This document shows positions 3,571 to 58,184 of a stretch of DNA of 64,000 nucleotides, piece after piece. The notes under the pieces are model-generated. The model made no database searches and was not told the DNA's origin. It saw nothing but the letters and a program-made list of their open reading frames with translations. Numbering within the stretch: the stretch's first letter is position 1; each line of letters starts with the position of its first letter. This stretch comes from Ruditapes philippinarum (lineage: Eukaryota), in contig NW_026863466.1 of the NCBI RefSeq assembly GCF_026571515.1, forward strand, positions 186,001-250,000. Direction: 5' to 3'. A program made the translations under genes and the position numbers.

Positions 3571-6500
3571 TATGTATTTTTGACAGTCTATGTCGCATAA
3601 ACAGTCATCTATAGAGTTTATTTAACCATTCAAATAAATGTTGCTTCTACGAAATGTAGATCTATGTTAGTAAGACCCTGAAAACGAAAAGATAAATGTC
3701 TAAAACAGGTCTTTCGTTTCTCCTTGTTGAGCTGTTTAAATTGTTTTTCTTATAAACCTCTAACTATAATGAAATTAAAATTCAAAATATACTCTTGAAT
3801 AGTTTGTAGAGAAATACAAGTTAATTTAAACTTTTATTAGATCAACACATATTGATTACTTCTTCAACAAATATAAATTAACAATATTTGGATATACATT
3901 AAGAAAACCCCGATAATCTAATTAGTTGCTACTGTGCGTAGATATTCAACATGGTACTATTCAAGTAACAAATCTTGTGAAGAAGTGTATAATTTTATAC
4001 TTAAACATGGAGGAAATATATTTTAAGATTGGATGGGAAACCGCACAGGGTGAATCCAATCTGAAGACACGAAAGCTTCAGTTCTACAATTTGATTTGTA
4101 TATTTAATAGTTTAATATGCAAGATTAATGCATAATAAGTGTTTTTTTATATAGTTATAATATTTACTGCATATGAAGGGGGTGATAAATCAAAAGTCAT
4201 TTAAAACAAAAGTGCACTTTATCGTCAAAAATAGTTGACTTAAATGCCATTTGTATTTTTTAAGCAAATAAGACACATGGAATGTTACAGTAGACACCTT
4301 GGTATGTGTTAAAAATTATAAGTAAACTTTTATTATGAACGTCTCATTAAAGAAATGTAAAGCAGTTATTTAGGAAAATATATATACGATATATACGATA
4401 CATATAATCTTACTTTTATTTTTTTACATTGAGTAGTACCTCACAGTGACTTGCAGGCGTAATAAACCGAAGTGGTAAACTGCGTTTAAAAAACCGCGAC
4501 GGTGTGGTTTTATGTTTTTGGCCGAGTTATTACCATAAATATTGTTATTATGCATATTTGTTATTCAGAATACTAAAAGTACCCAAGACACAATGAAACG
4601 TTGATCTATTTCTGATTGGTATAGGATTAGATTAAATCAAGATGTAATTGAATGGTCTGAAGACTTATAGCTGATTATGCTGCCAGTTTAGTTTAACAAA
4701 GGTTAAGTAAGGTTAACAAACGGCCGAAGATGGTCAACCTTACGTTGTTATTTATTTGTATTTATTACTAACATAAATCATCAGATGGATATAGAATAAA
4801 TGACACATATGAGTTCTAAGCGGGCATGTGTAATTAGAAATAGCGATGGACTAATGCAAATCCCTCTAATTAACTAAAATCAGATGCATTTCTGCAAAAT
4901 ATTGCGTTTTGAATTAATTATATTAAACCTGCACAATAATCATAAAGGTTTGAAAAGATATACTTATTATTCACACCTTTTAATACCCAATATTTGAATA
5001 ATGTTATTCGATTTGAGATTTGAAGTGCCTTATGAGTGTGCGCCATTTGTAACAAAACGTTTTCAAGAGAATCCAAATCAATTTATCTCCCCTGGAATGT
5101 TGAAAAATGATCAAATACTTAAATTGTTAATTGATAAATTCTCGTTATCATAGTCATTTAAGCAGTGAATGCCATATATTCTGCAACTGTCGTTATTGCA
5201 TTTATTATACACATGAGACTTGAGAAGAGACTTTAAACAAGGAGCCTCAAACATTTTTAAGAACGAATGCATGTTTTATCACGCCGGAAAATCATTTTGA
5301 AATTCAAACTTATCATAATGATCATGTTACGTGGCTTCAATGTTTGAAAACAAATTTGGCAATAATTAAATACTCTACAGACAATTATTTTCACATTAAG
5401 TATTATCGTTGATTGTCGTCTTGATTGAGTTTATGCAATGATTTATTAACATCAAACATACGAGTTTATTACACGCGGAGACTGTAAAACACTTTCTTAT
5501 GTATCAATTGTAGTTTATCGTGCAATATTTTTTTTTACATTTATATTTACAAAATAAAGGATGAACGTTTCCTTTATATATTGTTTTTGTCATCAGTATG
5601 TATCTCTTTAGCTACAAAACATAATAAGTCTTCTGAGAGAAATGAAAAGGTATAATTATGTCAAAACTTCGTACTGATTCAGCATTTTATTCATAATAAT
5701 GAATAGGCTATATACAACCGAAACAACATGCTATATATACACATTGAATAAAGTGAAAAATAATACATTTGCTTAAACAAGTAAATTATATATATAATAT
5801 ATATCTTTTTTCAAAATTTGTTAGACAACGCTCGGAAATGAAAGAAAGTTTTCCGTAGCTGCCAACGTTCTATGCCATTCAAATATATATTTTATCTAAC
5901 AAAGCCACTGTGCTACTTTACAAATTATTGCTAATAACTAATTTGCATACAATAATGTCATCATAACTTTTAAGAGTTGTGAATTGTGTACCGCTCAAGC
6001 CGGTGCTAGTGGACCTGAGGGATGTTGCATTTATTCATTATCCCTCATGTACAGACTCAATAAAATCGAATCTGCAATTCTCATGTCATTTTGTTGTGAT
6101 AAATGCTTCTTAGAGATCACTTTGTTTCCAGATTTTTATCAGTCGTATGTATTCATGTCACAATACCAAATTTGATTTTTTCTTGATTACATAGTAATTC
6201 AAGTAATAATTGAATCTCTTGAGACCAATTGCTGATTATTTTGGCCTAATTGAAATTGTTCACAAATAATCCCAAATGGTCAAGTACAAACAAGAGCAGT
6301 CCTACAAGAATAAGGGTTGAAAATGTAATATCTTTAAATCTTTATTCCACTGACATATAGTGTAATAATCTTAATCGTAAGCGTAAGAAATTTATTATGA
6401 TCACTATGCATGTATTTCATCGCTTAGAGACAAGCTTACGAAATAAAAGTTTGCTACATTAAACGCTTTAGTATATCAAGTGTGCGCTCGTTTGCGTTAT

Positions 6501-9500: not shown

Positions 9501-12500
9501 TGATTCGTTTATGTCATCATCATAGGATATCATTCTGCATTAATTTGTAACATAAAATGCAAGCTATCTGAAACATATTAGTAATTTATTGAATCAAATA
9601 TGTATAACATTTTCTATATGAAAATAAAACTGTTGTTACAATCGAAATTTGCTTTTAAATTAGTATTTTGGGCTTTTGCAGTTATTTGGTGCAGTTATTT
9701 GTTGTAGTTGTTTACTACAGAACTGAAATTATGTCATTAATATTAATATAAAAAAGAGCATGAAAACGCTAAAGAAAGCATCAAACAACTATTTGGTAAT
9801 TCAGATAAAAGAATACTTTGTCAAAAAGTTCACCTCGCCTGAAGTGGGTGTAAAAAGTTATTATTTCTAATTCAAACATTCCCTTGTTTTGTCTTTTCAT
9901 ATCGTGCATAAGTTTGTCCCGAAGTTTTAATCTCAATTGTCTAACAAGATCAACAATATCAAAACAAACAAAATCAGAAATGAACCGTATAACACAATCA
10001 AACAAACAGAACATTAGTTGTTTTACAATAAGTATAATATTTTTACTTATTTATTGAAAATCTTGCAATATGTCACAATTACAATGATCATATATTAAAT
10101 TCTACATTGTTTCCCAGCAGCAAAAATTGAAGGATTCGTTGAATAACAAAAAGTAAAAATTTTCTTTTTTTGTTTGTTTTTGTTTTACTATGTAAAATCA
10201 CTATCATCCATACTTTCTTTGCATTGTTTGGATCTTGTAGCTGATTGTCCTTCCCTTGAGACATTTGATCTAATGATGCTCATAATTATGGTATTAGTGT
10301 TTTATCATTACAGGAATTGATTTTGCAACTGATGTCTTTTGCAGCAACATTATAATACAAATCTGCAACTAATGAACGACCAATATATATTTTATTAAGG
10401 TTAATATTAAAAAAGAATTGAAAGACTCACGGAAGATTACCCACAGCTAAACACAATTGTAACGAAGCAGTTAGCCAAATCAACAGGCAAAATCAGAAGG
10501 TTTATCTTAGAACAAAATGAAAAAATAGAAGCTTTGATGTAGAGTTTACGTCAGCAAACAGTTTGTTTCACTGAATTTGATTAGTCCATGATGGATTCAT
10601 TTTTAGATATACTTGAAATGTCTGTAGACTTATTGTTAATTTTGCTACACTTTGTATAAAGCCAACATAGAAACTGTTAAAATTTACATGATAGTTCTCC
10701 TTTCAGTTACTTCAAACTAATTGATAAAATAGAGAAAAAATGAATCCCTAAAGAAAGCCCCAAAACGACAAAATTGAAACTATTGCAGGCTCGGTTTAAT
10801 TGAGTCTGTTCATGAACACGTCACTTATAACCATTGACCGATGTCATGGAAACATTCAACTCTCTGATAAATTGATGTGTCTCTTTATATTTTTAGAATA
10901 TAGACAATGTTGCAAAATTCCGTTTTTTGTTTGTTTGAGGTCTCATTCATTTTCAAGATAAAAATGCATACATAATTACTATATCATATCCGTAGACACA
11001 AGAATCATGTAAAACATAAACATTTCTTATTTGAAAGGTATATTGATTATGTTTTCAAACACAATATTAGCAATTAGTACTAATTTTAACAATCTACAAA
11101 ATTAAAAAATATATTGAGTAGTATAAGAGCTCCTCTAAGAAATAGCGACACTCTAAAAAGTCTGTAATATTATACTTATGACAAATATTTTCTCATTGAT
11201 TATTGTTTAGAAACAACTGCTCCATTCAGCTAACTGCACAAGCTAAATGATTTTTAAATAATCAAAAATGTTTGAAATATGTATGAAAATGTTACCATTT
11301 TTATCACTAGTTTGATTAAAGTACTTTAATATACCGCTATAATCTACATGGTAAACGGTTGTTATCAAAGTTTACCAAAATGTTTTAGAAGAAAAATAAC
11401 AATAAAAGTACTTTAAAATGTATCGTACTGTTTTAGATTTAAATTTTTGTATATAAAATAATAAATGGGAATCGATGTCGCCAAAATAGTTTTTTTGAAT
11501 AGATTTTGTTCAAACACACACATTATTCTAAGTATATTGTTTATTTTAACACGGTTTACATCATTGTTTTTGTTAGTTTAAAATGACATTATGCCCATCC
11601 AAGTGTATATAATGAGTGAAGGTGAATATCAAAAAAAGTTTTCATTTTACCAAAATTCCTTTTTATTTAATAATTAAGTTCGCTTAAACAATAAATAACG
11701 CAGAGATCCCAACGAAATTTCTGTAAATATTCATTAGAATTTACCTGTAACGCTAAGTTTATAAAAAGAGTGGGACAGTCTTATTAGATTTTAGGCAGAT
11801 TTATAATTTTATTAAAAACAATTCAATATCAACTGTTGGTCAAACACCATTTTGACAGGTAATCTTTTGAAATATAAAGTCAGCTCAATTTGACTATGAA
11901 AATATGAGCATAATGTCACTTACAATAGGGATTACATTGAATGGGTAGTTCTAAATTTAAAACACCCGTGGTCCACTTTATGATTTTTTATGTCTATTCA
12001 AGATGATAAGTATAATCGAGTGTAAGAGATGTAAATTGTACATTTAATTATCACGTCCTAATTTGTAATTCAATATGTTATGAAGATCCTATACAAAAGA
12101 CATCAACGGTTACAAGGGACGCTGGTAACAAAAATATTTCATAATGTTATCATGAACATATTTGCTGTAATACTTGTTTGTGATATTTAGGTCAACATCT
12201 TGTGGTGAGCTAATCCAATAGCTTGTGGTGAGTTAAGTTTAAGGATTTAACTTGTTAAGGGGGGCTTAGAGTAAAATTATGAATATTGTTATCATGAGCA
12301 TATTTGTTGGACTACTTGTATGTGATTAATTTAGGTCAATAGCGGGAATCAATAGATGACTGACAGATTAACGTATATGAAATTAAATGCTTAGTCAAGT
12401 ATTGGTTATATATTATGATGATATATTAGTATCAGAATGTTTTTTTTTTTTCGTAAAAACACACACAAAATACACAAAAAAAAAACAACAAACAAACAAA

Positions 12501-18883: not shown

Positions 18884-19082
18884 TATTTGCATTTGGAACT
18901 CATGCCCATGTCATAAAATCTCGAACAATTGAAACGCATTTTTAAGGTACTGACATTTTCATTTAGAATGTTTCGAACGCGGTATTTGCATTTGGAACTC
19001 ATGCCCATGTCATAAAATCTCGAACAATTGAAACGCATTTTTAAGGTACTGACATTTTCATTTAGAATGTTTCGAACGCGGT
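18884..19082 (+). repeat. Perfect 99-bp tandem duplication
   Basis: TATTTGCATTTGGAACTCATGCCC... at 18884 and 18983. Single copy in both paralogous regions. Confidence 0.9.
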
Positions 19083-20717
19083 GACAACTGAAGCTCCTGC
19101 TGGAAAAAGAAAACTCGCCTTATCGGAATTTATATATTATTTTAGCGATTAAACCCATTAATAAACACCGACTTCTATTAAATTATGAACAGCATTTAGC
19201 TTGTGTTTAACTTGACATGAAGATTATGTTCGTTAAATATTGTTCACAATTGTTTAAGAAGATCCAGGTCACTTGTGATCATGAATTGTACAGGAATGTT
19301 GACATTTGTAATGCGGCAGCTATTTCAGTTGAATTGTAGCCTGATGCGGAAACCTTTGTTTGTCACTTTCAATGCGAGTTTTTAATTAAACCGTGGCTAT
19401 TTGAATATAAATAAGTCTATTCTTTGACTCTTCAACTCTGGCTCGTCATTCCTGCGTGAGTAATTAGTTAAATAAGCAAGCCAACCTATGTTAAAAACAC
19501 ACATTAAATTTGATGAGTAAAAATAATGTTACTTATTGTTATAATTTAAGAATTTCAAAGTTACGGTCTGTTACAAATTAGGCTAATCACTTCTAATTTA
19601 AGAAGCACTTGTTAAAAGACGCAGATATTCGCATCCCGTATTAATGATTCATCTTAATCGTTTGACATTCGATGATAGGTGCATGTGTTGAGAAACGTAA
19701 TTTAAATCACTTATGAAAAGTCCATAGTAATAATAAATCATTGTGTTAGACTAATAAATCAGTATAAAATGTTTCGTTTGACTAATTAAAATGCTATATG
19801 ATATCTATAAGACATATAAATTGTTATAATTGTCATAAAATGTCATGATATTCGTCAATAGTGCACATTTTAAAATGTAGCTCATGTAGGTCCAGAAATA
19901 ATCATTTTGTTCTATAGCATATGCTTTTGCAATTGCTTTAAGCGTATCAACGCCTACGGAATCAAAGGCTCATAAATTAAATATTTCTTTGATTATTCAT
20001 ACTTAATAAGCAAGTTTCAAAGGTTAATCAAAACCAACCTTCCTTTTTCTCACGATTGTTATCAAAAATTGATATATGGTTTTATTTAGTTGTTGATTTA
20101 TCGTCGAATATTATTCTTTATTACACACGCCCGTTGATGAAGTAATTGTATAATTTTATTGAGATCCTTCACTGATAAAAGAACATTGTATTTGACAAAT
20201 TTTCTTTATAAAACTTACATATTAATTATTTAGTAATAGCAATGTTAGTAATGATATGAAACTCGATTGGAATTAAAAATACGAGTGATTATTCAAAATA
20301 TCGTAGATTTTTGTTGTTACAGTAGTTTTTATATGTATCTTTTTTCAACAAGCATCAACATAAACAGGAATACGGCCAGCACATTCTTTCAAAAAGTTAC
20401 AAAAAAAATCTTTTGAAAAACAAAACAAGAAAAGGAAATGCACACATAACGATTTAAAAATCGCCTGACTTTTCTTATTACGCATGTCATTTACATTTTC
20501 AACTAACATGAACTTCATTTTCTTATCTGTGTAGCTAAAAGCGGAATGAAAACTTTTTGGTTGCATATGCCATTACTTAATCTATCGTGTGACATTTTGA
20601 GTCGGACAATGACCGGCAAATAACACGCAAACAAAAGTTTTCACAAAAAAAGCTGACATTATCTTATTACGGAAACCAGACAATACGGAAAACGGAATTC
20701 CTAAAGAACGCTCAATA

Positions 20718-21232
20718 CAAACTCCTCACAGCGGTTACGTCACGCTTTGCTACTTTAACCACTGCCACCACTGAAATCACGTGACGATAGTTGTATCATG
20801 TGACAAAAACATGGCGGCCAGTTTCAGAACGCCAAGGACCCCATATCAAACTGGCAGATTTATAATTACATTCTTACCAGACAAAATATGTTCAAAACAC
20901 ACAATTTGTTTAAACTTTAAAACAAGTGCCGGGTCAAATCTTTTGCGCTATCGTTCAATAAATGTCTAAATTTTGCCATTGTTTACTATACATGCGGTGT
21001 CACAGTGAAAATATATTTCGTTATGTTTACAAAATAATTTTTATGCATATATTTTTTTACATTCTTGTACATTAAGCATAACTATTTAACGAAAGAAAAC
21101 TAAAATGATATAAAGTATTCTATTTTAAAATTAAAAGTGAAAAAAATATATCCGGCTATATTCGACCGAATTTACTTGTGGTGGCAGTGGTTACTGTACT
21201 GATCAGGGGAAGTAACCGCTGCGAGGAGTTTG
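20718..21232. mobile_element. 515-bp non-autonomous DNA transposon (MITE) with bipartite TIRs and 9-bp TSD
   Basis: TSD CGCTCAATA at 20709-20717 and 21233-21241. Outer TIR CAAACTCCTCACAGCGGTTAC / GTAACCGCTGCGAGGAGTTTG (20/21 match). Inner perfect 16-bp IR TAACCACTGCCACCAC at 20756-20771 and 21178-21193. Absent at the paralogous site near 53195. Confidence 0.9.
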
Positions 21233-21951
21233 CGCTCAATAGGCAAACTGGAAAAAATGCTACAGACTCAGTTCGATTCATGGACGATATTGGAACGTGC
21301 AAGCTACCGCCCACGTCCCCTAACATCAAGTGAAGTTAATTTTTAATATTTCAAAATGAAAATGGTGAAAACACAAATTAATTATTATAATATGATGTAG
21401 CATTTGATTATAATGCCTCAGTACCTTGTTTCCTGGAAATAAAAAAAAACAACATAAGTTTGTCAATGTTTGTGTTATGCATTTTAATCGGTATCGTTTG
21501 AAAACGTAAGCCACAAATTTGTTTTGAAATGTTAGCAGAATGGTGGTGTACGTAAGCATTAATGAAGTTTCCAGGCCGTGAATACCTATATATTTCAATC
21601 AGTGTAAAATATATTTGATCTCGATACAAATCATCGTCAGATAAAATTAATTTGCATAAACAGACTTAAACAGAATAAACTAATATGCAAACTTGAGCTC
21701 GAAAATTTAACACATGATGAAATATTTAAAAAAAACATTTTATCCCGGAGTTTCGTCAAACCAGTCAGTAAGTAATGTTCATAAAGATTACTTTCCGGTG
21801 ATGGAACAAGCGACCTCTGGATTAAGAATCCGAAGCTCTTTTCATTTGCACTGTGTGGTCAGGTATTGCATCCATTCAAATGGTATACCATCAACATTTA
21901 GATTATACGAATATATTTTAGTTCGAGTGTCTTGGAAGCTATAAGCTTATT

Positions 21952-26240: not shown

Positions 26241-26378
26241 GGACAAATTAAACAAACTTGGACACGAGAAGCTTTATCTTGGAGTGGTTTGTAATATGCA
26301 TGTGGTTTAAACTTTGAAAATGTGTGTGACTGTTATGAATGATTTAAACGTGCAGAAAAGACAGGCATAGTACACAAA

Positions 26379-26896
26379 ATGGTTTTCAAAAAATACCGGT
26401 CTATGAAAACTAAGAAAGTGTGGATATTATTTGTTGTGGTTTTAATAATATTAGTATTAGTTGCAACTAACTTAAAAGCTCACAATGTTATTCTAAATTC
26501 TGTATTGGATATACCGTTTAAGAGTTTGGTTAGAAAAGCCTCAAGTGATGCTTTGTTCGATAATACAGCAGTTCCCGGAGACAAAGTTGAACATCTTCGT
26601 GAGAGGCCTGTAATGGATAATTCTTTAGTTAACGGAGTTTGTCGAGGAAAACTAGATAAAACACAGATCGGCCAAGATGGGTCTTGGCAACCGGTAGACA
26701 AATCTTTGACAATGTTTGTTATTTCAGCATATTATATTAATACTGAGAAAAAGATATTTATCATTGGTGCAAAACCAATGTATAAAGTCACTGTAATTTG
26801 CCAACTGTGGACACTACGGGACATAACTGGTGAAATAGAAATGCGGGAAACTGATGCTAATGTCGGGACACCTAACGACCCTGCCGGACCATTACC
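26379..26896 (+). CDS. GT92-family glycosyltransferase (GALT-1-like putative beta-1,4-galactosyltransferase), copy 1, coding exon 1 of 2
   Basis: ATG at 26379. Basic cytoplasmic tail (MVFKKYRSMKTKK), hydrophobic anchor (VWILFVVVLIILVLVA) and stem give type II Golgi topology. The ORF-track stop is intronic: donor ATTACC|GTAAAT at 26896/26897, phase 2. Conserved in copy 2. Confidence 0.9.
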
Positions 26897-27936
26897 GTAA
26901 ATACTTTATACCATTTCATTTGAATTATATTAATTATATAATAAAATATTTACATTAAAGACTCATAATTGCTTATAAACGAATATTATCAGAACGGGCA
27001 AACATAAGTTTTATAACGTTTAGATGATCGTTTCAGAGTAGTAAGTAGCTCTGATTCTTTTATTATAAAGATAGAAAAAATGTTAACAAAGTAGAATTTT
27101 TACATCCATATAAATAACTATTTCATTTTTAAGCTGCATGCCTCCAGATGAGCCAAACCTATATCGAGGAAATCAACCTTAAGCAAAATGTACTAAGATT
27201 TTAAGAAAGAAAACAATCACAAGTCAAGAAAATTTACATGTTCTAAGCAATTGTTCAGTATCTGTCACCAACTACTTTTCCGTGACTAACGCTGTAAGAT
27301 TTTAATTTTGCATATTTTGATTTAGTTTTGGTAATTTTCGTAATTTTAAGGTGCCGTTTACAATATATTAATTACACTCTTTGTTCACTTAATAATATTT
27401 TACTTTTAAATACACATTTTTTCATGAAAATAAGCATGAATCTGGTTTACAAAAGCTTGCCAATGAGACATTTTTTGAAAAATATCATAGGACATCAAAA
27501 ACTAAAATCTTTTCAGGGATATAAATAAAAAGTACTTGGACATAATGGGTCTTAAACCTTTAGTCTGCTAACGGCAACTAATTTTACTCATGCAACCAAC
27601 GCAAACCAATATCAGCTGGAGCGTCCGTACCATTTCAACACGAACAGTACCTTTTATTTTATTCAGATAGTATAATGATTCAGTAAGTAGTAAATTTCCG
27701 TAAAATGTTGGATGGCTTTGTCCATATTGAAAAGGCCACCCAGGAAAATAAGCGTAGCATACCAGCACAAGCTGTATTATAGTAAATTACGCTTATTTGA
27801 ATTGTTACTATCTAAGTTTAAGTTGTCAAAGAAAACGTTAATGCAATCATATTGAATTCTACGAACATAATGCATAAATATTATATTTTGTACTATATTC
27901 CATCGTTTGACATTTAGAGTTATGAGGATTACAACT

Positions 27937-28410
27937 CAAGCGATACAACCGATCAGATTAATACGCACATATAATACAATCTTACAAATTAACACAAGCG
28001 ATACAACCGATCAGAATATTACACTCAATTAAGTATATTTTACAAATCAACACAAGCGATACAACCGATCAGAATTTTATACTCATATAAGTATATTTTA
28101 CAAATCAACACAAGTGACACAACCGATGAGAATAATACAACCATATAAAATCATCTTAAAAATTAAATAAAACGAATCAGAAAATTACACTTTACAAATA
28201 AACACAAGTGACACAACCTATGATAATAATACACTCATATAATTGTATCTTACAAATTAACACAAGCGATACAACCGATAACTCATAAATATATTATCTT
28301 AGAAAATCAACACAAGTGATACAACGAATTAGCATTAAATACACATGTTGTATTTGTTTACAAAATCAACACAACCTATCAAAATAATACACTCATGAAC
28401 TATCATCTTG
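27937..28410 (+). repeat. Intronic minisatellite, about 58-bp unit, about 8 degenerate copies
   Basis: CAAGCGATACAACCGATCAGA or close variants recur at 27937, 27995, 28053 and 28111, then decay. Confidence 0.85.
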
Positions 28411-29134
28411 TATTATAATGTTACAAAATACCGAAAGCAATAAAATCGACCGGAACATACACCCATGCTTTAGTATCTGGTTGATATTAGTAGTTTGATT
28501 ATACATTATTGAGTACAATACTGAATTCTATTGGAAGAAACTTGGCTGTCAAAACTTTGTTGAACAAGGTGCCAGCCGAGTTCAATATTTTTTCAGGTGT
28601 GCACGAGAATGATAAATAACACTAATTGTTTTTAACAAAAAATAAACATAAATTAAAATATCATAAGTTATTTTGAATAAAGATATATAATCTACGTTGT
28701 GTGGATCTATTTGCTGTAAATAAAAAGAAAGTTGTATTTACTTAAGGGAAGAATATCATAACTGTATCAAATGATCTTCATTGTATCCCTCGCTTCGAAA
28801 CGATTTATGATTATCATAAAGATAAGATTTCAAATCAATGTTTAAATATATTGACTTAGTCGGCAAACTGTCTTTTTTTTAAATAGAGAATAGAGAAATA
28901 TCCAGGCAGAATCTTTTAGTCGAAGTTGCAAAAATTAATCATCTTTCTATACATTTCTGATAGGAAAATGGTTATCGAATGTGCATTTTTTTACAAATAT
29001 GTGAACAAACGTGTGCACCGAGTAATAGACTTAATAAATCTTGATCAGATCTCCTCTTTTCCAGGTTTAAAATTATTTACGTACATGTACAAGAAGGCTC
29101 GGTTGCAAAATTATGTTATACGTAAATAACATGC

Positions 29135-29396
29135 ATAGACTGATAATCTCGACGATGTGAGTTCATTTCCCGGGCTGACAAACTGATTACTTATCAGTCT
29201 TTCGGAAGAGATTTTAAATCAAAGTCCCGTGTATGAGTGCTTATGCACTGGGCGCGCTAAAGAACCAGGAAAAGCGTCTTAAATTGGGCCATCTTTCTGT
29301 ATCTTGACCAAAATCTAAATTCACAAATACTCATTTTGAGGACTCGCCCATTTGGTCAACCGGTGGCGAGTATACCTGAACTTAAAACACACACAA
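29135..29396 (+). mobile_element. Deu/Nin-domain SINE-like element in the copy 1 intron
   Basis: Degenerate B-box (GAGTTCATTTCCC), then GTCTTTCGGAAGAGATTTTAAATCAAAGTCCCGTGT...GCGCGCTAAAGAACCAGG, resembling the Nin/Deu central domain. (CA)n tail. Confidence 0.65.
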
Positions 29397-30269
29397 GTTT
29401 TTCAACCAACCGCAACGCTACGAAAAATACTAAGCGTAAAGGTGTTCCGATTGCCTTTAAGCCAAGCCGAAAATTTCATCCAATTAATCATTAAAAAAAA
29501 GTGTATCCCTTTCCACAAAATATATGCCATTGGAAGAAATATACGTAACGTTATTGATAATATTAAACATTCCGACATATCATTATTCATCGTATTAATC
29601 TCGAGGGCCCCATGAATATTTTTATTTTTTACTTCTCAAAAGCTTCAAAATATCGCTCTTATTTTAAGTGTCCTGTTTTAGTTTCAAAGTTACTCATTGG
29701 CCAGTTACTCGAACCGTCGTTTCTTTTGCTACTAGTTGTTAGTTAGAACGGTTGTAGTGATTCTGTATTTTGTATGAAAGTTGAAATACTACTTCATATT
29801 TATATTTTATTTTCTATGACAAATAAGTTCACATTCAGCGATACTTTCTTCAGGTGATAAGCATCTGACATGATATTCTCTAAAACCGTTATTTAAACGT
29901 TATTTTAATCATGTTCGCCCTTTCTTTAGGAGGAATAATATATTCGCTTCTGACGCATAACGTGGCTTTACGTATAAAAGAAGTGCAAAATATTGACCAT
30001 TGTATATTCTATATATTTTTTTCTAACAATTGAAAATAAAAATGACATCAAAAGAAATAAAAACTCGAAAACTAATTACTCCCAGTAGTGGCCTTTTCCG
30101 AAATTGAATAAGCAATAAGTTAACGTTGTCCTTGAGCTATTTAAATTTACTTATTACGTAACCTTTTAGTTAATTCTGGAATTGTATCCGCTTTGAGGTG
30201 TTTGTCTCATGCATATCACATTTTACCACGTTGTGTATAAATATCCAGTAATTTATTATTTTCTTACAG

Positions 30270-31179
30270 GTATACTGCAGTGACGTTTGAATGTAAATTG
30301 AATGGTAATGATACGCCATCATTTGTTTCACTGGTAACACATCCGTGTCAAAACGCTTTGAATCTCCTGAGTATAAAAAATGCCTCAAAAGTCGACACTT
30401 ACCAACGGCACTTTACGGTTTGTTTGGCGCCAATATTCAGCTACAGAAGTGCTCATGAATTCATCGAATGGGTAGAACTCAATCGAATTCTTGGTGTCGA
30501 CAAAGTTATCGGTTATGATTATTCAATATCGGAAGATGTGAAAAATATATTGAAATTCTATTCGGAACGCAATTTCACAGAAATTATTCCATGGAGACTT
30601 CCGTTTCCAGTTCAACATCACATTCATTACTTTGGTCAAACTGTTGCACTGAATGACTGCCTTTTCAGGACTAAGCAAATCTCAGAATTTATGTCAAATA
30701 TCGACTTGGATGAATACATTATTCCTCATTCGGGGAATGCTTTCAACTGGACTCAAATGATGAAAGATCTTGACCAATCGGCGGATGGATTCATTTTCAA
30801 AAATACCTTTTTCAGAAAAGAATGGACAAATGATGAGGTAGAATTCAAAGGAAAAGCAAAGGCCAAACAACTTAAGTTAATAACATTGAAACATTTTGAT
30901 CACGAGACAAAGATATATCACCACATGGCCCGTTCAAAGTATTTTGTTAGGCCATCACGTGTCAATTATATTCTTATACACGAAATCCCCAATGCACGCG
31001 TTGTTAAAGTTACTTCACAAATAGGTTTGCTCCATCACTATAGAAACTGGGAGAATTACGAGGATAAACAGCAAAGGGTTAAAGATACTACGGTCCTCGA
31101 CAAATTTGAAAAGGCGCTCATCAGCAACGTTGAAAGCGTATGGAAAGAATTAAAGTTGGAGAATCTAATGTTAGAATAA
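30270..31179 (+). CDS. GT92-family glycosyltransferase, copy 1, coding exon 2 of 2 (catalytic domain); spliced protein 475 aa
   Basis: Acceptor TTTTCTTACAG|G at 30269/30270. CC+G TAT ACT GCA GTG joins in frame with the 299-aa ORF. GT92-type motifs: FTVCLAPIF, EWVELNRILGVDK, YFGQTVALNDCLFR, DxD (IDLDEYIIP), RSKYFVRP, LLHHYR. TAA ends at 31179. Confidence 0.92.
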
Positions 31180-32416: not shown

Positions 32417-34050
32417 AAATGTATAAGCATTTTTTTAAAACGGATAATCGTTAAATGTTCTTAAACGGAATGATATTTTCTTAAAGCGGAAATCTACTTA
32501 TATGCGACCATTAATATGTTGATTGTCTCTTTAAGGTGTTTTGACATGACAGGACTGGAAATATATATTGTTTTCGAGATTAAAGTCCTATGCGATGTAA
32601 CTGTCTACAGTTTTAAAAATATCATTCGCTATCTGCGTGTTTTTAATGAGTATGCTAATTGTGAAAATGGCCTAATTTATTGCACCATTTTTCATTTTAA
32701 ATGAGCTAACAATAGCACACAATACGATTTTCAATTTATACCTTTTATTATATTTCTTTTATATATTTTGCATATAATTATGTCTGTTGTTTTAAGTGCC
32801 CCAGTTGTGTTGTAAGAAATTTAAATTTAATGATTTTAGATTTTTGTACCTTAGTGGAGTTCCTTTTAAGTGAAATGGCCTATAATGAAACGTTTAATGT
32901 AATAAAATAAATAATTATGTTGATAGTATATTTAGATACAGATATAACAGCAAACCACGAAAGATGTTGTTGGCAAGTGTGCATTACATGATCCGATATT
33001 ACATACATTTATAAAGCAGATAATTAAATGTTCTAGAACAAAATATTTGACTTCAATACAAAAAACTAAATACTAAATCACTTTAACTGTACCAGTTGCT
33101 AAAACGCATAGCTCAGATATATGTCCAACGTGTAAACTTTAGGAAACTATAGGAGGACCCCACAGTTTAAATGCTTTTGAGAAATAAGAATAACACTATT
33201 TTAGGCTTAATGTGCCTTTAAGGTATTTTATCTATTTTATCTATTTGTACTTCTTATCTTATGAGATTAATAATGCACGCTTGCAATGTGAATCTTAAGT
33301 GCGTTTCACGACATTTATCTGATTTTTAAGATAATGATTTACCAAGTTGTATTTAGATTAAAGGCTATTTGTAAAAAGTACTTGATCAACAATGAAAATG
33401 ATAGCAATCAACTAGATAACTTGTTAAACGTCTTGATAAGACTGTTTGTATTATTGATCTGTGGCAAACAGCAAAGGGTAAAAAAATAATTTATAAATGT
33501 TTTTCTCAAGAAAACAAAAACAAATAAGTCAATCTGTATACGAAATAATAGTTTAAAGACAGTTAACCTATAGAATTAAAACAAGTTAATAAATGCTAAT
33601 AAAGACAGATAAACCGTTTTACTGACTTAAACAATTGGCTGCTCGTTGGCTGTTATAATAATATGCTTTACCTGTCGCAGATGCCTACATATCATTTCAA
33701 TATAATAATTTACAGGACAGATGGCCTAATCACTTTTAATGTTGAAGCTTTTTTATTTTACAACACAGGTTTCCCATTTAATTAAAGAAGCGAAATCATT
33801 ATTTTGAAGAAAAAAAAACAAAACAAAACACACACATTATTTTTAGACTTGCACGCTGTCAACACAACATATTGATTAAAATTATAAATGACAAAATAAA
33901 TATTCAAGGTGTCAATCATTTACGATGCATGCTTAAAATATGACACAAATCTATCTAATAGTCCCAATTATCTGCCAGAAACTGTTTGAGAAACAAGGTG
34001 ACTGAACATTGTCAGTTTGGTTCCAAAATGAATATGAAGCATATTTATGA

Positions 34051-34175
34051 AATAGAGAAAAACAGAATCCCTAAAGAAAGTCCAACACAACAAAATTGAA
34101 AATGTTGCAGGCTCGGTTTGATTGAGCCTGTTCATGGACGGTACTGGAAAGTGCAAATTACCGTCCACGCCCCCT
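34051..34175 (+). repeat. Dispersed double-hairpin element, subfamily 1 (other copies about 10727-10816, 20681-21327 interrupted, 38685-38801, 53167-53306)
   Basis: CAGGCTC-ggtttgatt-GAGCCTG (34108-34130) followed by TGGACGGTA-15 nt-TACCGTCCA (34135-34167). Confidence 0.8.
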
Positions 34176-34614
34176 ATTTTTTAGGCCGATTTGTCATATT
34201 ATGGGCCGTTTTAACTTGAGGCCGATTTCACTTAAGACCAAATTAACTGTCATACCAAATGACACGTTCTAAAACCAGCTATTCATGTCAATAGCATTAA
34301 CATCAGTGTCATTAAAGATAGAAACACTTGTTCCTTGGAAAAATATTATGATATTTATTACCTGTAAAAAAAAACAAATAAAGCTTGGATGTTTTACGAT
34401 CATTGATCTCTTTCTTATAATTATTACGGTATCTGGATATCACTCAACTGCACAGTTTATGTGCTTCATCTTCATAGAAGATTCAATTTTAATATCTGGA
34501 AAAAAGTGATCAGTTACATTACTTGAAAATTGCAGACTCATTTTTATTGAGTCTGCGCATGAGGGATAATTATAACGTGTTAAACTTTTCATGTTAACAG
34601 AGGATACTAGGTTT

Positions 34615-34778
34615 AAAAATCTGGAAACAAAGTGATCCCTCGGAAGCATTAATCACAACAAAATTACAAGAGAACTGCAGACTCGGTTTGATTGAGTCTG
34701 TACATGAGGGATAATGAATACGTGCAACATCCCTCACGCCCCCTAGCATCGGCTTGAGCGGTACTCAATTCTCAACAC
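34615..34778 (+). repeat. Dispersed double-hairpin element, subfamily 2 (partial copy about 34493-34580; minus-strand copies about 5976-6139 and 41165-41321)
   Basis: CAGACTC-ggtttgatt-GAGTCTG (34678-34700) followed by TGAGGGAT-16 nt-ATCCCTCA (34705-34736). Confidence 0.8.
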
Positions 34779-35513
34779 ATAATAGTGTCTGTATCAATGA
34801 TCCCGAAGGACCAGAAAAATATAACAACACTGAAGTGAAACCTATAATAGATTTAAACAAATACATTTGTAATCATATTGAAATTATAAGTCTAGAAAAT
34901 TGTATTCCACGTACAAAAGTAACATACTACATTACAAGAATCTCCCTTTTCCAAAACCCTTATTTTTATATTTGCTATAAAAATTTTAATAAAAAAAAAA
35001 AGTTTTTTTGCTTTGGGAAAAGCATGCCCCAAAGTCAAAGGGATTTTCATTTTTATTTCAAATAAGGCAAGTTAAACCAAATAACTCACCAGTTGAATGA
35101 TTATACATTTGCATCTGCTAAAAATTTTCACCAATTCTGTTTGGTTTGTAATTTCCCCAGATATTGGAAATGATAGCTTTGTCTGAAAACTGCTGAAATC
35201 AAGTGTTATGTAAATAGTTTGTTTCAGCGTAATATATTTGAAGCATAAAGGACTTATTTAGATGCCTTGTATCATCTCTCGGAGCTGGAAATTACAAAAT
35301 AATTGTCTTTAGAGAGAAAACATTTTCAGCAATCTATTTTCACATATTTTTGAATCTGGTTCAAGACCAAAGGTATACGAGTTGTATTTCAACCACTGAT
35401 AACTAGTTATTATGATTGAATTCTTAGTTGTGATGAGGCAATCTTACTTTTCTTTCATGTACAAATGTTTATCAAATCGGCTGTTTGTTAATAAAATATA
35501 ATAATGACACTTA

Positions 35514-37959: not shown

Positions 37960-40796
37960 AATATTGCTTTATCTATCGTTTTTTCCTTCAAATGTAACTG
38001 TTTAGGAATTTATATCTTCATATATACATGTAGCGGAATCTCAAAGTAATAGCTTTCTTCTACAAGATAAAAATAATTACCACATCACATGGTTTTCTTT
38101 AGCCTTCTGGTGGCAACAGATTTGACAACCGTGCCTAAAATTGATTTAGTCCACACTGAAAGTTGGACAAGCACATTCAAGCTATAAATGTGACCATAAT
38201 GCTAGTTATCGAGAAATAACAGTAAAGAAGAAATGTTAATGTTTACATATCATGTAATAAGGGCGGAAGAGTGCCCGTTACCGCCTTTTACATTCAGTGC
38301 TCTAGGAACAGAATATACTTTGTTTACAATAACTGCATGCCAAACGTGGCCACGAATTGTTCAAAGTATGCTTATTATAAAGTTATGGTTTTCCTATTAG
38401 CAAAAGCCGTACTTTGCAAAAGTGTTCAGTTATTATCTCTTGTTTGTTAAAGATTAGCATTGAAACATGTCTAAATGTTCTTGTTCTTGTAAAAAACAAC
38501 TCCACAGTTATTCATCATGAAATTACTGTATAGCTTTGATAATGTTAAAATAAAATGAAATAAAAAAAAAACACACACAATCTCTTCTTATTCCAAACAT
38601 CTATTTATATTAGTAACTTACGTTTTGAATCGAGCTAATGTAAAGAAATATAAGTCCGAGATTTACAACATAGACTGCATCCTGAAATAGAGAAACAGAA
38701 TTACTTAAGAACGTTTAAATAGGAAAATGAAAATGTTGCAGGCCCGCATTAATTTAGCCTGTTTCTAGACGACAGTAGTAATAAGCAACCACAGTTCACG
38801 CCATCAAAGCCAAATCCGTGACTTGAAACATAATTTCATATAAATACTTTCTGGAATCTTTGATTTATAACATTTTCAATGTTTTTGCAATCGCCACTTA
38901 CGTTAAACTAATTTTTGAGAAATCGCATGAACAAGTTTTACTTGACAGCAGGAGAAATCAATTCTCCTACACGTGTAAAGTACACAAAAAGAAAACATGA
39001 CAGAAAAGGAATAAGTGATTTATTTGGGACACTGGCGAAAATTGATAGACGGCTGACGCATTGATGCTGACAATGTTAAATGGCAAGTCAAGTATTGATT
39101 ATAATTAGGGTGATGAAGGTCCCAATTTATTTTTTTCCAGAGACACTCTATTAAACTTTCGAAGACTAATGAGCTACATCAAATATTTATTACGACCAGC
39201 AAATGATGTATATTCGAGTAAACATATCTTATCGTATTTTTTATCAGGATGCATATTGACTTATGTGATGCTTAGTTATCAGTACTGTATTAAATTGCTT
39301 AGTTGTAACGTGTTAGTTGTAACGTGTAATAGATTGTATTTAGTCGTACCAGGTAAAGCACTGTTAAAATTAATTTTGTATTGTATCTTTATCCAGAGAT
39401 CATTGATAAACGAATATTAAAAAGAATAAGAGTGCAAACTATATTAAAATTTCTTTTCGATCTTTATAGCAAGTTATTCTTATAGCATTTAACTATAAAC
39501 AATAACTAGTCAAGCTTAGTACACAAATATATATCATACACTTTGTTTCATTCATTCTTGAGAGAAAGTATGTAATATCAATCTGCTTATGCAAGATTAA
39601 TGCATAATAAGTGAGTTTTTGTATACATAGTTGTAATATTTATTGCACATAAAGGGTGTCATAAATCAAAAGTCATTGAAAATAAAAGAGTACTTGATCG
39701 TAATAAATAGTTGCCTTAAGTTACATATGGATTTTTGTATAAATATTAAAATACCGCATACCATTTCATTGAGAAACAAAACATTATCTTCAAAAAAACG
39801 TAACATTCAGTACAAAAAAATGATGAGGGGTCTCTTGTAAGCAAATAAAACAAATAAAACGTTACATTTTTCGTAAAATAATTTATGTTAAAAAATTAAA
39901 GTAAACTTTAATTATAAACGTCTCATTAAAATTAATAAATGTAAAGCTAAAATAAAAAAACAGTAACCTAAAAAAAAATAAACACATAAATCTTATGTTT
40001 TCCTTCAGTTTTCATAGTGTGCAGTACCCCAAAGTGACTGAGCTTAACAAAATGGTAAGCTGCGTGTTTTTTCCAAAAACTCGACAGTATGGATTTTTGT
40101 TTTTGGCTTTGTTATTACCAAAATATTTTTATAAATAAATGTGGTATTTGTTATTTGGAATAATCAGGGCACAATGAAATGTTGATCTTTTCCTGATTGG
40201 TCTAGGATTAGATTAAATCAAGATGGAATTGAATCGTCCGAAGACTTATAGCTGATTATGCTGCCGGTATAACAAAGGTTAACAAACGGCCAAAGATGGT
40301 CAACCCTACGTCGCTTTTCATTTGTATCTATTACTAAAATAAAGCATCAGATGAATAAAGAATACGTATCAAGCGGGCATATATAACTACAAAAAGCGTT
40401 GGACTAGAAAAAAAATTCCTCATATATTGATAATTGTGTATTCAAAAAAAAAGCATAGCTGAAATTGTATAAAAACTGAAATCAGATGCATTTCGGCAAA
40501 ATATTGTGTTCTAAATTAATTACATTAAAATGCACAATAATTATACAGGTTTGAAAGGATATACTTATACACACTTTTTAACTGACAATGAATAAATAAC
40601 GTGATTCAATCAGAAATTAAAGTGTCTTATAATTGTGCGTTATTTGTAACAAAACGTCTTATAGATGATCCCAATCAAATTATCTCCCCTAGAATGTTAA
40701 AAAAATTAGATACTTAAATGGTTTATTGATAAATATTCTTTAGCAGTAAAAGTCACATATGCTGTAACTGTCGTTATTGCATTTATTATACACTGG

Positions 40797-41110: not shown

Positions 41111-44100
41111 AAATATGCTAATAACTAATTCGCATAAAATACATGTCATCATAACTTTTAAGAGTTGTGAAATGTGTACCGCTCAAGCCGGTGCTAGGGG
41201 ACGTGAGGAATGTTGCATTTATTCATTATCCTTAATGTACAGACTCAATAAAATCGAATCGGCAATTCTCATGTCGTTTTGTTGTGATAAATGCTTCTTA
41301 GAGATCACTTCCAGATTTTTATCAATCGTATGTATTTATGTCACAAAATGAAATTTGATCTTTTCTTGATTACACAGTAATTCAAGTTATAATTGAATCT
41401 CTTGAGACCAATTGCTGATAAGTTTGGCCTAATTGAAATTGTTCACAAATAATCCCAAATGGTGAAGTACAAACAAGAGCAGTCATACAAGAATAAGGGT
41501 TGAAAATTTTATATCTTTAATTCTACTGACATATAGTGTAATAATCTTAATCGTAAGCGTAAGAAATTTGTTATGATCACTATGCATGCATTATATCGCT
41601 TAGGGACAAGCTTCCGATATAAAAGTTTGCTACATTAAACGCTTTAATATATCAAGTGTGCGCTCGTTTGCGTTATGCGTATTTGCTTAATTTCGCTTTC
41701 CGCATAATGCAATCGTGAAATTTGATGGCAATATGTTATTTTTAAATGTATTTTAAAATCGTTATTACTGATTAATTTTATTGTCTTTTAATGTTGATTG
41801 ATAATCAGCACCAATTATTGCCATGCTAAAATGTGATTACAGTACAATCACCATTTTACTATGTTTGTTACTAAAATAGCAACATGTTTCATTTCTACGT
41901 TTAGTAGAAGCTCTTAGATTTATCTAATTAGATTATATTGGCTTTCTTAAGGAGAAATTGTATATCCAAAGGCTAATTGTTTCTTTTTGTTGTTGAAGAA
42001 GACGTAATCAATATGTGTTGATCTAATAAGAGTCTTAATTATCTTGTTGCACCAACACATTGAATTAAGAGCATCATTTTGATAAAACAATAGCGTACAA
42101 GTACATGGAATCTTCAATATTGTTATATTGTCGAAGGATATAATTAACAAGTGATACGGTCAATAGGAAAATGTTTTAAAATGGAATTTAAAACGGAAGC
42201 TGATTACTTTTTTTAAATTCTTAATTTGAGATTGTAATAATATTGTTCGTCTTAGAATGGTACTCAAGCTTTAAAAAAGTTTCTTATTTTCATCTTAACA
42301 TAACATAAATAACACATATTGATTTCAATTAATTCCTTCAAAGGTCTTTAGCATTTAACTAAAAAAACACACACACAAAAAACTTATTTTCAAATTTTTC
42401 AAAAGTTTAGTTCTTTACTTGTTTTTATTTTAAGACATAAAATAATCATCGGACCATTAGAAAATTTAAATTCTTTATTAGTGATCCCTTTTGAATTTTA
42501 AATAAATTTTCGTGCGTTTGTACATTATTGAAATCACACTTAATCAATATCGCTTCTGTACACTCTGTTAATCCTTTTTTAAATCAATACTTGTTTTTGA
42601 GAGCAGAGCAATAGAAAAAAGTATGCTTGTTCAGAGATAAAAAAAATATTTCTTATGTCACGTTCTAGATTGATTTTGATAAGGGTATAGATTAGACTCT
42701 GATAGTTTTAACTCGCAGACGTTTGCCAAATTTGTACATTATAGCAACGAAATCAAGAATATTCAAGTTGAATGACCTGGAGTGCACGAGTGAAATATCA
42801 TTTGATTTTACGTACAACACAAACACATTTTATATTTTTTTATGCTTTTGTAGGGGTTCTAAGTCAGTTCTAATTTCTTTTTCGCGTAACGACTTGCTCT
42901 CTCATTCATTACGTTATCAAGTCATGACGTCAAATTTGTCATGAAAAAAAAAGATATGTGCATATATTCCTTTGTTTCTCGTATTCCTTTGTTTCTGCAC
43001 AAGATAAATAATTTTTAAATAATCCAAAATGTTTGAAATATGTATGAAAATGTTACCATACGCACCCATTTTTAACACTTGTTGGGTCATTTACCTGCTT
43101 AAAGTTCTTTATTCAATATACCGCTATAATCTACAAGGTAAACGGTTGTTAACAAAGTTTACCAAACATGTTTCAGAAGAACATTAGTTGATTTTGTCAA
43201 AACTAAAGAACTTTAAAATGTATCGTAATGTTTCAGATTTTTATGTATATAAATTAATAAAAGGGGAATCGATATCCCCAAAAAATTATTATTTCGGCGG
43301 CAAGGGTGAATAAATCAAACACAGACATTATTCTAAGTATATTCGTTAGTTTAACACGGTTTCCCCATTGTTTTTGTTAGTTTAATGATAGGGATTACAA
43401 TGAATGAGGAGTTCTGAATTGAAATGCCCGTCTGCCACTTTCTGATTTTTTATGTCTATATGCATGATTTCAAGATAATATTAAGTATAACCGAGCATAA
43501 AAGATGTAAATTGTACATTTAATTATCACGTCCGAATTAGTAATTCAATAAGTTATGAATAGCTTATACAAACGACATCAACGGTTACATGGGAGGCTGG
43601 CAACAAAAATATGTATTAATATTATCATAAGCATATTTGTTGAAATACTTGTATGTGATTTTTAGGTCAATATCTTGTGACGGGCTAATCTTAAGGATAT
43701 TACGGTTACAAGAGAATATCAACCAAAAGGATTTAACTTTACGAGGGGGGCTTGCAGTAAAATATTTATTTATGCTATCATTAGCATATTCGTTGGACCA
43801 CCTGAATGTGATTTATTTAGGTCGATAGCGGGAATCAATAGGTGACTGGCGGATTAAGCATATGAAATTAAATGCAAAGTCAAGTTCTGGTTATATTGTA
43901 GTCCATTATTCACCTTCAAAGATGATTTATTTGTCTAAAAATGGAAAAAATAAACGAACAAAAAGAATATTGTATTTGCTTTCATGTTAATTGCAATCTT
44001 AATTTACTATTTTTATGGCAGTAAAGGAAATAATATGTTGTCTGTTTAATTCATTCATATCTAAAAACAGCGTTTTAAGGATGTCTGTAAGAAGGTTGAA

Positions 44101-53100: not shown

Positions 53101-53994
53101 TAAGTGACACAAAAAGTGTTTTCACTCAATGCTGACAATAACTTAATTTATAACGGAGACCGGTACAATAGAGAAAACAGAATTCCTTCAGAACAGCCAT
53201 CGCATCGCGGCTAAATGGTAAATGTTGTAGGCTCGGTTCGATTGAGCCTGTTTATGGACGGTACTGGAAAGTGCAAGCTACCGTCCACGTCCTCTAACAC
53301 CGGCTGTAGTAAATTTCAACATTTAAAAATGAAAATGATGAAAACACAAAATTTCTTATTATTAAGAAAAAGGTAACATTTTATTACGTTGCATATTTCT
53401 CATTGTCTTGTTTCCTGGAAAAAAATTAAACATTAGTTTGTCAATGTCCGCTTAATCCATTTTAATTAATTACTTTAGCATGTAAAATATCTTTTGAGGA
53501 TTTAGCTTAAATATAAGCTTGGTATGTAAACAAGAAGTGTGTTTAATTTACAATTTACGGTTGGAAAACGTAAGCAAAAAATAAGTTTTGAAATGTTTGT
53601 AGAATGTTTGTGTAGTTCCTGTTGCCATATTTTAAGTGGCAATTCGTTAATATCTATTCAATTCAATTATAGTAAAATATCTTTTGATCTCGATACTAAT
53701 CTCATCAGATAAAATTAATTTGCATTAACAGACTAAAACAGAATAAACCAATATGCAAACTTGAGCCCTAAAGTTTTACACATGATAAAACATTAAAAAA
53801 CAAACATATCAGTAAATAATATTCAAAAAGAGATAACTTTCCGACGATGAAACAAGCGACCTATGGATTAACAATCAGATGCTCTTCCCATTGCGTTAAG
53901 CGGTCAGACTTTTGCATTCATTCAAATGGTATACCATCAACATTTATTTAAATACGAATTTATTTTCGTTCGATTGCGTTGAAAACTATAATCT

Positions 53995-56273: not shown

Positions 56274-56779
56274 ATGTTTTCTAAAAAATACCGGTTTATG
56301 AAACGTAAGACAGTGTGGATATTAGTTCTCGTGGTTTTAATAATATTCGTATTAGTTGCTAGTAACTTCAAAGTTTACAATGTTATTTTAAATTCTGTAT
56401 TTGATATACCGTTTAAAAGTTTGATTAGAAAAGCCTCAAGTGATGCTTGGTTCGATAATACAGCAGTTCCCGGAGACAAAGTTAAACGGCCTGTATTGGA
56501 TAATTCTTTGGTTAACGGAGTTTGTCGAGGAAAACTAGATAAAACACAGATCGGCCAAGATGGGTCTTGGCAACCGATAGACAAATCTTTGACAATGTTT
56601 GTTATTTCAGCATATTATATTAATACTGAGAAAAAGCTATTTATCATTGGTGCAAAACCAATGCATAAAGTCACTGTTATTTGCCAACTGTGGACAATAC
56701 AGGACGTAACTGGTGAAATAAAAATGCGGGAAACTGATGCTATTGTCGGAACACCAAACGACCCGGCCGGACCATCACC
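56274..56779 (+). CDS. GT92-family glycosyltransferase, copy 2, coding exon 1 of 2
   Basis: Paralog of 26379..26896 with an in-frame 12-nt indel (GDKVEHLRERP versus GDKVKRP). Donor ATCACC|GTAAAT at 56779/56780, phase 2. Confidence 0.9.
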
Positions 56780-57709: not shown

Positions 57710-58040
57710 ACGCGATACATCCGATCGTGTAATATCATCTTACAAATAAGCCCAAGCTATACCAACCGATAACTCATGTGAAATTATCTTAGAAAATCAA
57801 CCCAAGCGAAACAACCGATCAGATTAATTCGCTCATACAATACTATCTCACAAATTAACGAAAGCGATACAACCGATCAGAATATTACACTCTTATAATA
57901 TTATCTCACAAATCAACACAAGCGATACATCCGATATCTCATGAAAATATATACAACGATTCAGAATAACATACACATGCTGTATTTGTTTACAAAATCA
58001 ACACAACCTATCAAAATAATACACTCATTAAGTATCATCT
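57710..58040 (+). repeat. Paralogous intronic 58-bp minisatellite with fewer units
   Basis: AAGCGATACAACCGAT-type units repeated about 5-6 times. Confidence 0.8.
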
Positions 58041-58184
58041 TGTATTATAATGTTACAAAATACCTAAAGCAATAATACACCCATGTTATAGTATCTTTTG
58101 TATCTTACACGTTTGATATAGTAGTTTCATTATACATTTTTGAGTATTATACTGAATTCTAGTATATTATACATAAATACCATG

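Follow-up and report, generated by a model that had tools for sequence, protein, structure and literature searches.

The biv-TRIM repeat of bivalves is probably not an LTR element: one fixed insertion end and a predicted whole-unit RNA fold

biv-TRIM, one of the few animal TRIMs cited, is probably not an LTR element. We recovered it as a dispersed element in the window (the whole 64-kb stretch of Ruditapes philippinarum DNA analysed here); it has one fixed and one ragged end, is built of units of ~286-290 nt that can be repeated head to tail, and carries helices whose pairs change on both sides between subfamilies. By analogy with known systems we believe, with somewhat better than even confidence, that biv-TRIM would be a non-autonomous non-LTR retroelement, retrozyme- or Penelope-like, copied from the 3' end of a structured RNA. 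What appears to be new here is this re-reading of biv-TRIM and the covarying fold of its whole unit, not the sequence family.

Copies, tandem units and family identity

Profile searching of the window identified nine copies of the element and a detached 5' piece (Table 1). The copies at 53167 and 21245 are paralogues through a segmental duplication, as are those at 6138 and 41321, which leaves seven independent sites; both counts agree with those of an earlier note made from the letters of the window. The two hairpins described in that note also held when their coordinates and letters were checked, as did the count of pairs changed on both sides between subfamilies 1 and 2 (one in stem 1 plus four in stem 2, i.e. 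5 of 15). The element size given there, 120-170 bp, has to be revised, since pieces of that length are fragments of the ~286-290-nt unit. A stem-agnostic scan found the perfect double hairpin at two sites of the window (GC 27-34%) versus 0 in each of 10 shuffles, and the tail motif has four window matches versus 0.03 expected. The longest copy was initially matched by the profile at 34613-34759+; its right extent was taken from mapped reads and contigs, whose depth edges and loose ends put the fixed end at 34614/5 and the ragged end at 34839. The decayed copy at 34494..34591 has a fixed end of its own, and 22 nt separate it from the longest copy.

Table 1. Copies of the element in the window and structural features of the subfamilies
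Feature	Position	Predicted folded strand	Remarks
Longest copy, subfamily 2	34614..34839	-	226 nt of the ~290-nt unit; published biv-TRIM orientation +
Hairpin 1 of the longest copy	34678..34700	-	7 bp, 9-nt loop
Hairpin 2 of the longest copy	34703..34738	-	8 Watson-Crick pairs, extended on the minus strand by outer G-U and C-G; loop of 16 nt
Small hairpin in the conserved tail, longest copy	34747..34763	-	
8-bp helix closing the four-way junction	34670..34773	-	arms 34670-34677 and 34766-34773
13-bp long-range helix	34633..34813	-	arms 34633-34645 and 34801-34813
Copy, subfamily 1	34050..34176	-	profile match 34049-34180+
Copy, subfamily 2, decayed	34494..34591	-	profile match 34524-34591+
Copy, subfamily 1	53167..53325	-	profile match 53167-53309+
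Copy, subfamily 1, paralogue of the 53167 copy	20686..21329	-	profile match 21245-21329+ with piece 20686-20718
Copy, subfamily 1, stops inside hairpin 2	10727..10817	-	profile match +
Copy, subfamily 1, old and decayed	38684..38807	-	profile match +
Copy, subfamily 2, opposite orientation	5966..6138	+	profile match 6138-5993-
Copy, subfamily 2, paralogue of the 5966-6138 copy	41154..41321	+	profile match 41321-41181-
Stem 1, subfamily 1	34108-14 / 34124-30		CAGGCTC / GAGCCTG
Stem 2, subfamily 1	34135-42 / 34160-67		TGGACGGT / ACCGTCCA
Stem 1, subfamily 2	34678-84 / 34694-700		CAGACTC / GAGTCTG
Stem 2, subfamily 2	34705-12 / 34729-36		TGAGGGAT / ATCCCTCA

Within the copy at 20686..21329 sits an unrelated inverted-repeat element of 515 bp (20718-21232). 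Its terminal inverted repeats measure 24 nt (92%), a further inverted pair lies inside them, and a 9-bp target duplication (20709-17 / 21233-41) is perfect; its appearance is that of a Mutator-type MITE that has landed in a biv-TRIM copy. The window further contains two paralogous glycosyltransferase family 92 genes (26343-31179 and 56238-60246; the one exon scanned matches a protein of Ruditapes philippinarum at 100% identity), a duplication of ~30 kb with blocks 70-91% identical and partly inverted, and tandem arrays with 74-, 58- and 99-bp periods (60848-61151, 27932-28163, 57794-57935 and 18884-19082). Other dispersed repeats measure ~200-400 bp (7681-8088, 12949-13293, 19625-19858, 44600-44963 and 50062-50276) or ~200 bp (at 3816, 6662, 16943, 41821 and 47311).

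Sequence comparison assigns the copies, all of them fragments, to the published family biv-TRIM (PMC6934838), and the sequence family is not new. The earlier note could assign the element to no known family, and held that a match to a described transposon family would remove its novelty; biv-TRIM is such a match. The published primer TDR R matches three window copies with 1-2 mismatches (in the longest copy at 34742-34761, with 2) and three locus sites exactly. The conserved inner motif lies at 34798-34811 with 1 mismatch and is exact in the locus L017, and TDR F matches six locus sites with 1-3 mismatches, its match continuing the host copy in the loose ends. The published TDR of 202-218 bp and inner domain of 77-80 bp together correspond to the 288-nt unit derived here. 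As printed, TDR F and TDR R match one and the same element strand; the reverse primer may have been printed as its sense sequence.

According to the original paper, R. philippinarum has 46,567 biv-TRIM hits at 27,489 loci, with a median of 126 bp and 96% of hits below the length of one copy; arrays follow TDRx-I(x-1) and reach TDR58_I57; horizontal transfers were inferred; and a canonical PBS was sought, neither it nor an autonomous partner being found (PMC6934838). Primers, inner motif, purine run, unit length and tandem arrays are common to the published family and the element described here. The published reading is that of an LTR-type TRIM in the plus orientation, with a hairpin noted only in the inner domain, and the main text mentions neither TSDs, strand nor ribozymes and presents no end mapping, whole-unit fold or covariation (PMC6934838). 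Our analysis differs in that the fixed end lies inside the "TDR" and the fold is placed on the opposite strand. In the openly accessible papers searched, biv-TRIM turned up in the original paper and one passing mention, and we found there neither a reclassification of it nor an earlier report of a whole-unit covarying fold; Repbase or Dfam may list the family under another name or class.

Further copies were sought with a pattern in which the two loops and the tail were fixed and the stems left free. A third stem set is present in all seven metagenome contigs of another animal (38-40% GC) that contain the element, and L017, an AT-rich host-like contig from a bacterial genome bin, carries a fourth subfamily. 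The source bin of L017 is Candidatus Thiodiazotropha; with its 35% GC and bivalve repeat, the contig probably came into the bin from the host. Among viral contigs the stem-agnostic pattern had no matches, and nine matches to a 16-nt motif, none of which fits the unit profile, were put down to chance. Head-to-tail arrays of the ~286-290-nt unit are present in five of eight loci (L003, L005, L006, L007 and L017). Tandem form was also seen when the sequence records of four runs were mapped to window positions 33950-34950 at 80% identity. In run X7, 83,309 contigs map to this interval, where depth runs into the millions on the copies and stays at 100-400 on the flanks. The family sequence extends beyond 34839 with the spacer of the other species, and joints return to 34614-16 (~4,090 reads in run X21; four joints, 17 contigs in X7), so that the host carries the ~290-nt unit in tandem.

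RNA fold, covariation and strand

Free folding of the longest copy on the minus strand predicts a rod closed by the 13-bp and 8-bp helices, with a four-way junction on top that carries both hairpins and the small tail hairpin. The z-score of this copy folded as RNA is -5.55 on the minus strand and -3.23 on the plus strand. For L017, in which the long helices are kept and hairpin 2 is deleted, the values are -1.54 and +0.29; for the locus consensus, in which the long helices are recovered, they are -3.4 and 0.0. Free folding recovered the long helices on the minus strand in three subfamilies, and the minus-strand z is the lower in 10 of 14 copies, the remaining four folding better on the plus strand.

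RNAalifold predicted no pairs on the ragged 21-row alignment, and the helices were therefore set by hand on the minus strand and then counted. Over 21 copies, a five-helix model of 43 pairs has pairing in 88.5% of 654 cells, versus 35-43% when it is slid by 1-3 columns; 12 of the 43 pairs are changed on both sides. With a spacer hairpin included, an eight-helix version has pairing in 88.4% of 679 cells and both-sided change in 12 of 55 pairs. Both-sided changes affect 2 of 7 pairs of hairpin 1 and 6 of 10 pairs of hairpin 2 in the alignment of copies, and two columns of the 13-bp helix. The copy at 53167 has an 8-bp helix of quite different sequence, with arms (53219-53227 / 53317-53325) that are complementary at 9/9 positions. 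These figures are to be read beside those of shuffles: there are 15 helices of at least 8 bp on the minus strand versus 11.3 +/- 3.4, 28 of 200 shuffles also contain a 13-bp helix, and the number of double-changed pairs, counted on related alignment rows, is matched by 32-42 of 500.

Further double changes in the third and fourth subfamilies bear out the proposal of the earlier note that it was structure, not sequence, that was maintained in the master elements. In the model, compensatory changes would have preserved an RNA fold of the whole unit in venerid and other bivalve hosts. The same note raised, as a possible sole explanation, that template switching had homogenised the arms; this is rejected, because such switching cannot maintain G-U columns or a helix whose arms lie ~155 nt apart. 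The tail GGUGC and the invariant motif of loop 2 form a 5-bp pseudoknot candidate (89.8% of cells paired, with one-sided G-U changes only); in this arrangement the tail could pair with loop 2 instead of folding into the small tail hairpin.

The minus strand, opposite to the orientation of the original paper, is favoured as the RNA strand, although the case is not airtight. On this strand the majority pair is G-U in ten columns and A-C in none; within the 13-bp helix it is G-U in 4 of 13. Some columns alternate U-G and U-A between subfamilies, which is workable on the minus strand only. G-T wobbles in stem 1 had been taken to hint that the plus strand folds, but over 21 copies this stem has 9 G-U versus 10 A-C cells on the minus strand, which is symmetric decay and gives no such hint, and the G-U pairs of the long helices and the folding z favour the minus strand.

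If the plus strand were the RNA, its 5' end would be fixed and retroposition by internal priming would leave 3'-truncated copies, for which tailless small-RNA retrocopies are a parallel. The pattern of ends would fit equally well, stem 1 reaches 11 bp on the plus strand when G-U is counted, and the loops are T-loop-like (UUCGA, UGAAA, UGCAA), loop 1 resembling a Pol III B-box. We nevertheless consider this very improbable: on the plus strand the 13-bp helix has four A-C mismatches, and a compensatory change of the closing pair removes the last C of the B-box-like loop in three of four subfamilies. By eye the copies share no A-box, and ARAGORN finds no tRNA genes in the window and the eight loci. 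On the same three grounds (tRNA search, B-box-like loop, A-box) a tRNA-derived SINE or Helenus was rejected, and Helenus (PMC10886601) and the bivalve SINEs (PMC11481361) are also set apart by their descriptions.

Insertion ends and target sites

Ends were mapped by aligning each array to five tandem units, so that they could fall anywhere, in a set of 16 loci and window arrays. There are 11 locus arrays, two of them cut at the left by the contig edge. Among the nine with a visible left end, eight start at unit positions 280-2 (seven of eight if L004c is the second unit of L004b), versus a TDR start at 238; the fixed end thus lies ~50 nt inside the published terminal repeat. The exception is L004b, which starts at position 249, near the TDR start, and is a weak extension. 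The ten visible right ends are scattered over unit positions 30, 31, 108, 150, 167, 207, 214, 216, 225 and 234.

The window copies are too divergent for alignment of their left ends, which were accordingly taken from mapped reads and contigs. Host left edges fall at 34050, 34614/5 and 34632-4. They lead into heterogeneous AT-rich letters (agreement 0.39-0.49) in X7 and X21, and at 34615 in run X23, agreement being higher (0.58-0.76) in rows with few records. The edge at 34050 in X21 is an exception, in that the preceding letters partly continue the unit (agreement 0.46), indicating a tandem minority. At the right edge, 34839, the sequence runs on into the unit (agreement 0.53-0.83). Reads on 34628-34810 may belong to a derivative, which starts with an A-run and TGATC (24,030 loose reads before 34634 in X21), ends in a 14-bp palindrome after 34787 (7,870 reads, agreement 0.69) and has opposite-strand joints at 34634/34799; it may be a ~185-bp offshoot bounded by inverted repeats, or an inverted 5' piece of Penelope type.

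An integrase-type LTR element is expected to have two fixed ends and a TSD. If biv-TRIM were a genuine TRIM as published (PMC6934838), arrays and solo repeats would arise by recombination and fragments by decay. In keeping with this assignment, arrays fit TDRx-I(x-1), a purine run, GGGG(A/C)GA, directly precedes the TDR start (GGGGAGA being exact in L017), and one left end and one or two right ends lie near the TDR borders. The predominant left end inside the repeat argues against it, however, as do the failure of the paper to locate a PBS or partner and the absence of TSDs from its main text (PMC6934838). No TG..CA termini are present at the mapped TDR start and end of the unit. If the RNA is the minus strand, the 7-nt purine run that would be the "PPT" on the plus strand is a pyrimidine run within a hairpin arm. 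Around 63911-63919 a paralogous site in a block 84% identical lacks ~117 nt of the 34050 copy and has no target-site duplication; it is likely to be an empty site, though it may reflect a later deletion. Among the locus arrays with both ends visible (n = 8, judged by eye), no consistent TSD was seen, with one degenerate 8-nt repeat in L004a. In Table S3 of PMC6934838, none of the 20 clones that we take to be genomic colony-lift clones is an intact TDR-inner-TDR, and AluI cutting may account for some of the truncations. By its ends, its target sites and its TG..CA positions the element sits poorly in the TRIM class, and we regard the published assignment as highly doubtful.

The same ends might instead be those of a non-autonomous rolling-circle DNA element dependent on a Helitron or Helentron, with the fixed left end as nicking origin, the hairpins as ssDNA signals, ragged right ends from variable termination and arrays as read-through concatemers. 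Several features agree with this: units lie head to tail without TSD, subfamily 2 starts with TC after an A (34619-21), CTAG (34743-46) follows hairpin 2 by 6 nt, the 34050 copy stops at CCCCTA, and the element also folds as ssDNA (z -3.66 on the minus strand and -2.39 on the plus strand). However, just one of 16 mapped right ends falls at the CTAG of hairpin 2, subfamily 1 has no TC start, and by the established strand logic of Helitrons a left-end origin would displace the strand opposite to that of the G-U-rich long helices. We thus think a rolling-circle origin rather unlikely. The Helentron-associated HINE and pearl elements of bivalves, which are mentioned in PMC6934838 and PMC5139131, are a related comparison. 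They are likewise non-autonomous, lack TSDs, and have hairpins and tandem derivatives. HINEs are bounded by two fixed ends, with inverted repeats in subterminal position and microsatellite or core repeats inside, whereas biv-TRIM has one ragged end and the whole unit is repeated. We looked in supplement text for a link to the phBglII400 satellite and found none, the alignments there being figures.

The earlier note was right to suspect a mobile element, but its more speculative suggestion, the guide scaffold of a non-autonomous Fanzor-type element, found no support. Such an element would call for two fixed ends, with the scaffold reaching the right one and a variable guide behind it; here right ends are scattered, the ~290-nt unit runs on into the next unit, and there is no ORF in the window.

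Proposed copying and kinship with known systems

The reading we prefer, a retrozyme- or Penelope-like retroelement, would work as follows. The predicted fold of a minus-strand RNA of ~290 nt is a rod with the four-way junction at its top; the two hairpins would be part of this fold, which a partner enzyme or a processing step would recognise. If the minus strand is the RNA, the fixed end becomes a U-rich 3' end and the ragged end a 5' truncation, which is the pattern of target-primed reverse transcription; we infer that a borrowed reverse transcriptase, by analogy likely that of a Penelope-like element, copies the RNA from its 3' end into AT-rich DNA. A multimeric or circular RNA template would account for head-to-tail arrays, and the published TDR-inner-TDR would be a 1.7-unit slice of such an array.

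Penelope-type insertions are 5'-truncated, partly tandem and often without discernible TSD, and Naiads, which are dominant in bivalve genomes, have no hammerheads (PMC8557442). MRC1 of Chlamydomonas offers a precedent, having first been called a non-autonomous LTR element and later re-read as a non-autonomous Penelope-type element (PMC8557442). biv-TRIM resembles MRC1 and Naiad, as described in PMC8557442, in its fixed 3' end and 5' truncation, in head-to-tail multimers once mistaken for LTRs, in having no canonical hammerhead, in AT-rich targets and in abundance in bivalves. Fixed 3' end, 5' truncation and head-to-tail order, the marks of a Penelope-like element, are thus all seen in biv-TRIM, this polarity depending on the minus-strand call. 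It differs in that exact motifs did not reveal 3' sequence shared with a published autonomous consensus (ten motifs in the Naiad supplement gave one isolated 11-mer match, in an unrelated sequence), and in its conserved four-way-junction fold, which is not among the features described in the relevant parts of that paper (PMC8557442).

Metazoan non-LTR retrozymes (PMC7229834; bioRxiv 10.64898/2026.07.22.740005) likewise have a ~300-nt non-coding monomer with GC under 45%, and occur as monomers to long head-to-tail arrays without LTR hallmarks; a likely dependence on Penelope-like elements, proposed as their partners (PMC7229834), is a further likeness. The biv-TRIM unit has the form by which retrozymes are recognised, a 150-450-nt non-coding tandem unit with low GC. 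The two differ in that retrozymes carry a type I hammerhead and give abundant linear and circular monomer RNAs, whereas biv-TRIM has no hammerhead or other Rfam ribozyme and its RNA is here a prediction.

The hammerhead core CUGANGA..GAA with its stem, one mismatch allowed, was found on neither strand of the unit dimer, and in 18 arrays the descriptor gave one chance-like match, arising from a point change in one copy. Rfam at gathering score reports nothing in the window, and at E up to 10 it gives only weak unrelated matches on the element in L001-L007, L017 and 33950-34950, none of them a ribozyme. Long perfect or near-perfect palindromes, MITE-like hairpins at L001:39-182, L001:1037-1125 and L005:1448-1510, have weak matches to Rfam miRNA families. 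The descriptor test was applied to the hammerhead. Other resemblances, to twister, twister-sister, pistol, hairpin and HDV-like ribozymes and to RNase P, U3, U7, 7SK, an Sm site and a CTCF motif, did not hold across subfamilies or had the wrong topology, and were set aside. A distinctly unlikely variant is that biv-TRIM is a viroid-sized circular RNA retroelement of ~290 nt, self-cut and self-joined by an undescribed ribozyme; the four-way junction, the invariant loops and the possible pseudoknot would be that putative ribozyme, in a hammerhead-free class of retrozymes. If true, this could account for the horizontal transfers inferred by the original paper.

Unit-junction reads are present in the runs, from libraries that are unstranded and were not made for small circles. 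In X21 the element makes up 1.1% of reads, with ~2-fold depth on unique flanks; the element-to-flank ratios, ~16,800 and ~25,600, agree in order of magnitude with the published copy number. X21 is recorded as RNA-Seq, but its depth on unique flanks and its repeat ratio look like genomic DNA, and high expression was therefore rejected. In X23 the element is 0.03% of reads, 37-fold less than in X21, and neither of these unstranded runs shows pile-ups of starts or ends.

Taken by its behaviour, biv-TRIM is most like a retrozyme or a non-autonomous Penelope-type element, and it lacks the hammerhead by which retrozymes are tested. Should the RNA reading fail, it would be an ordinary repeat with a corrected annotation. 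Should it hold, biv-TRIM would have a retrozyme-like life style without a hammerhead, and would offer a small abundant RNA suited both to studying template choice by Penelope-type enzymes and to asking whether another self-cleaving motif exists.
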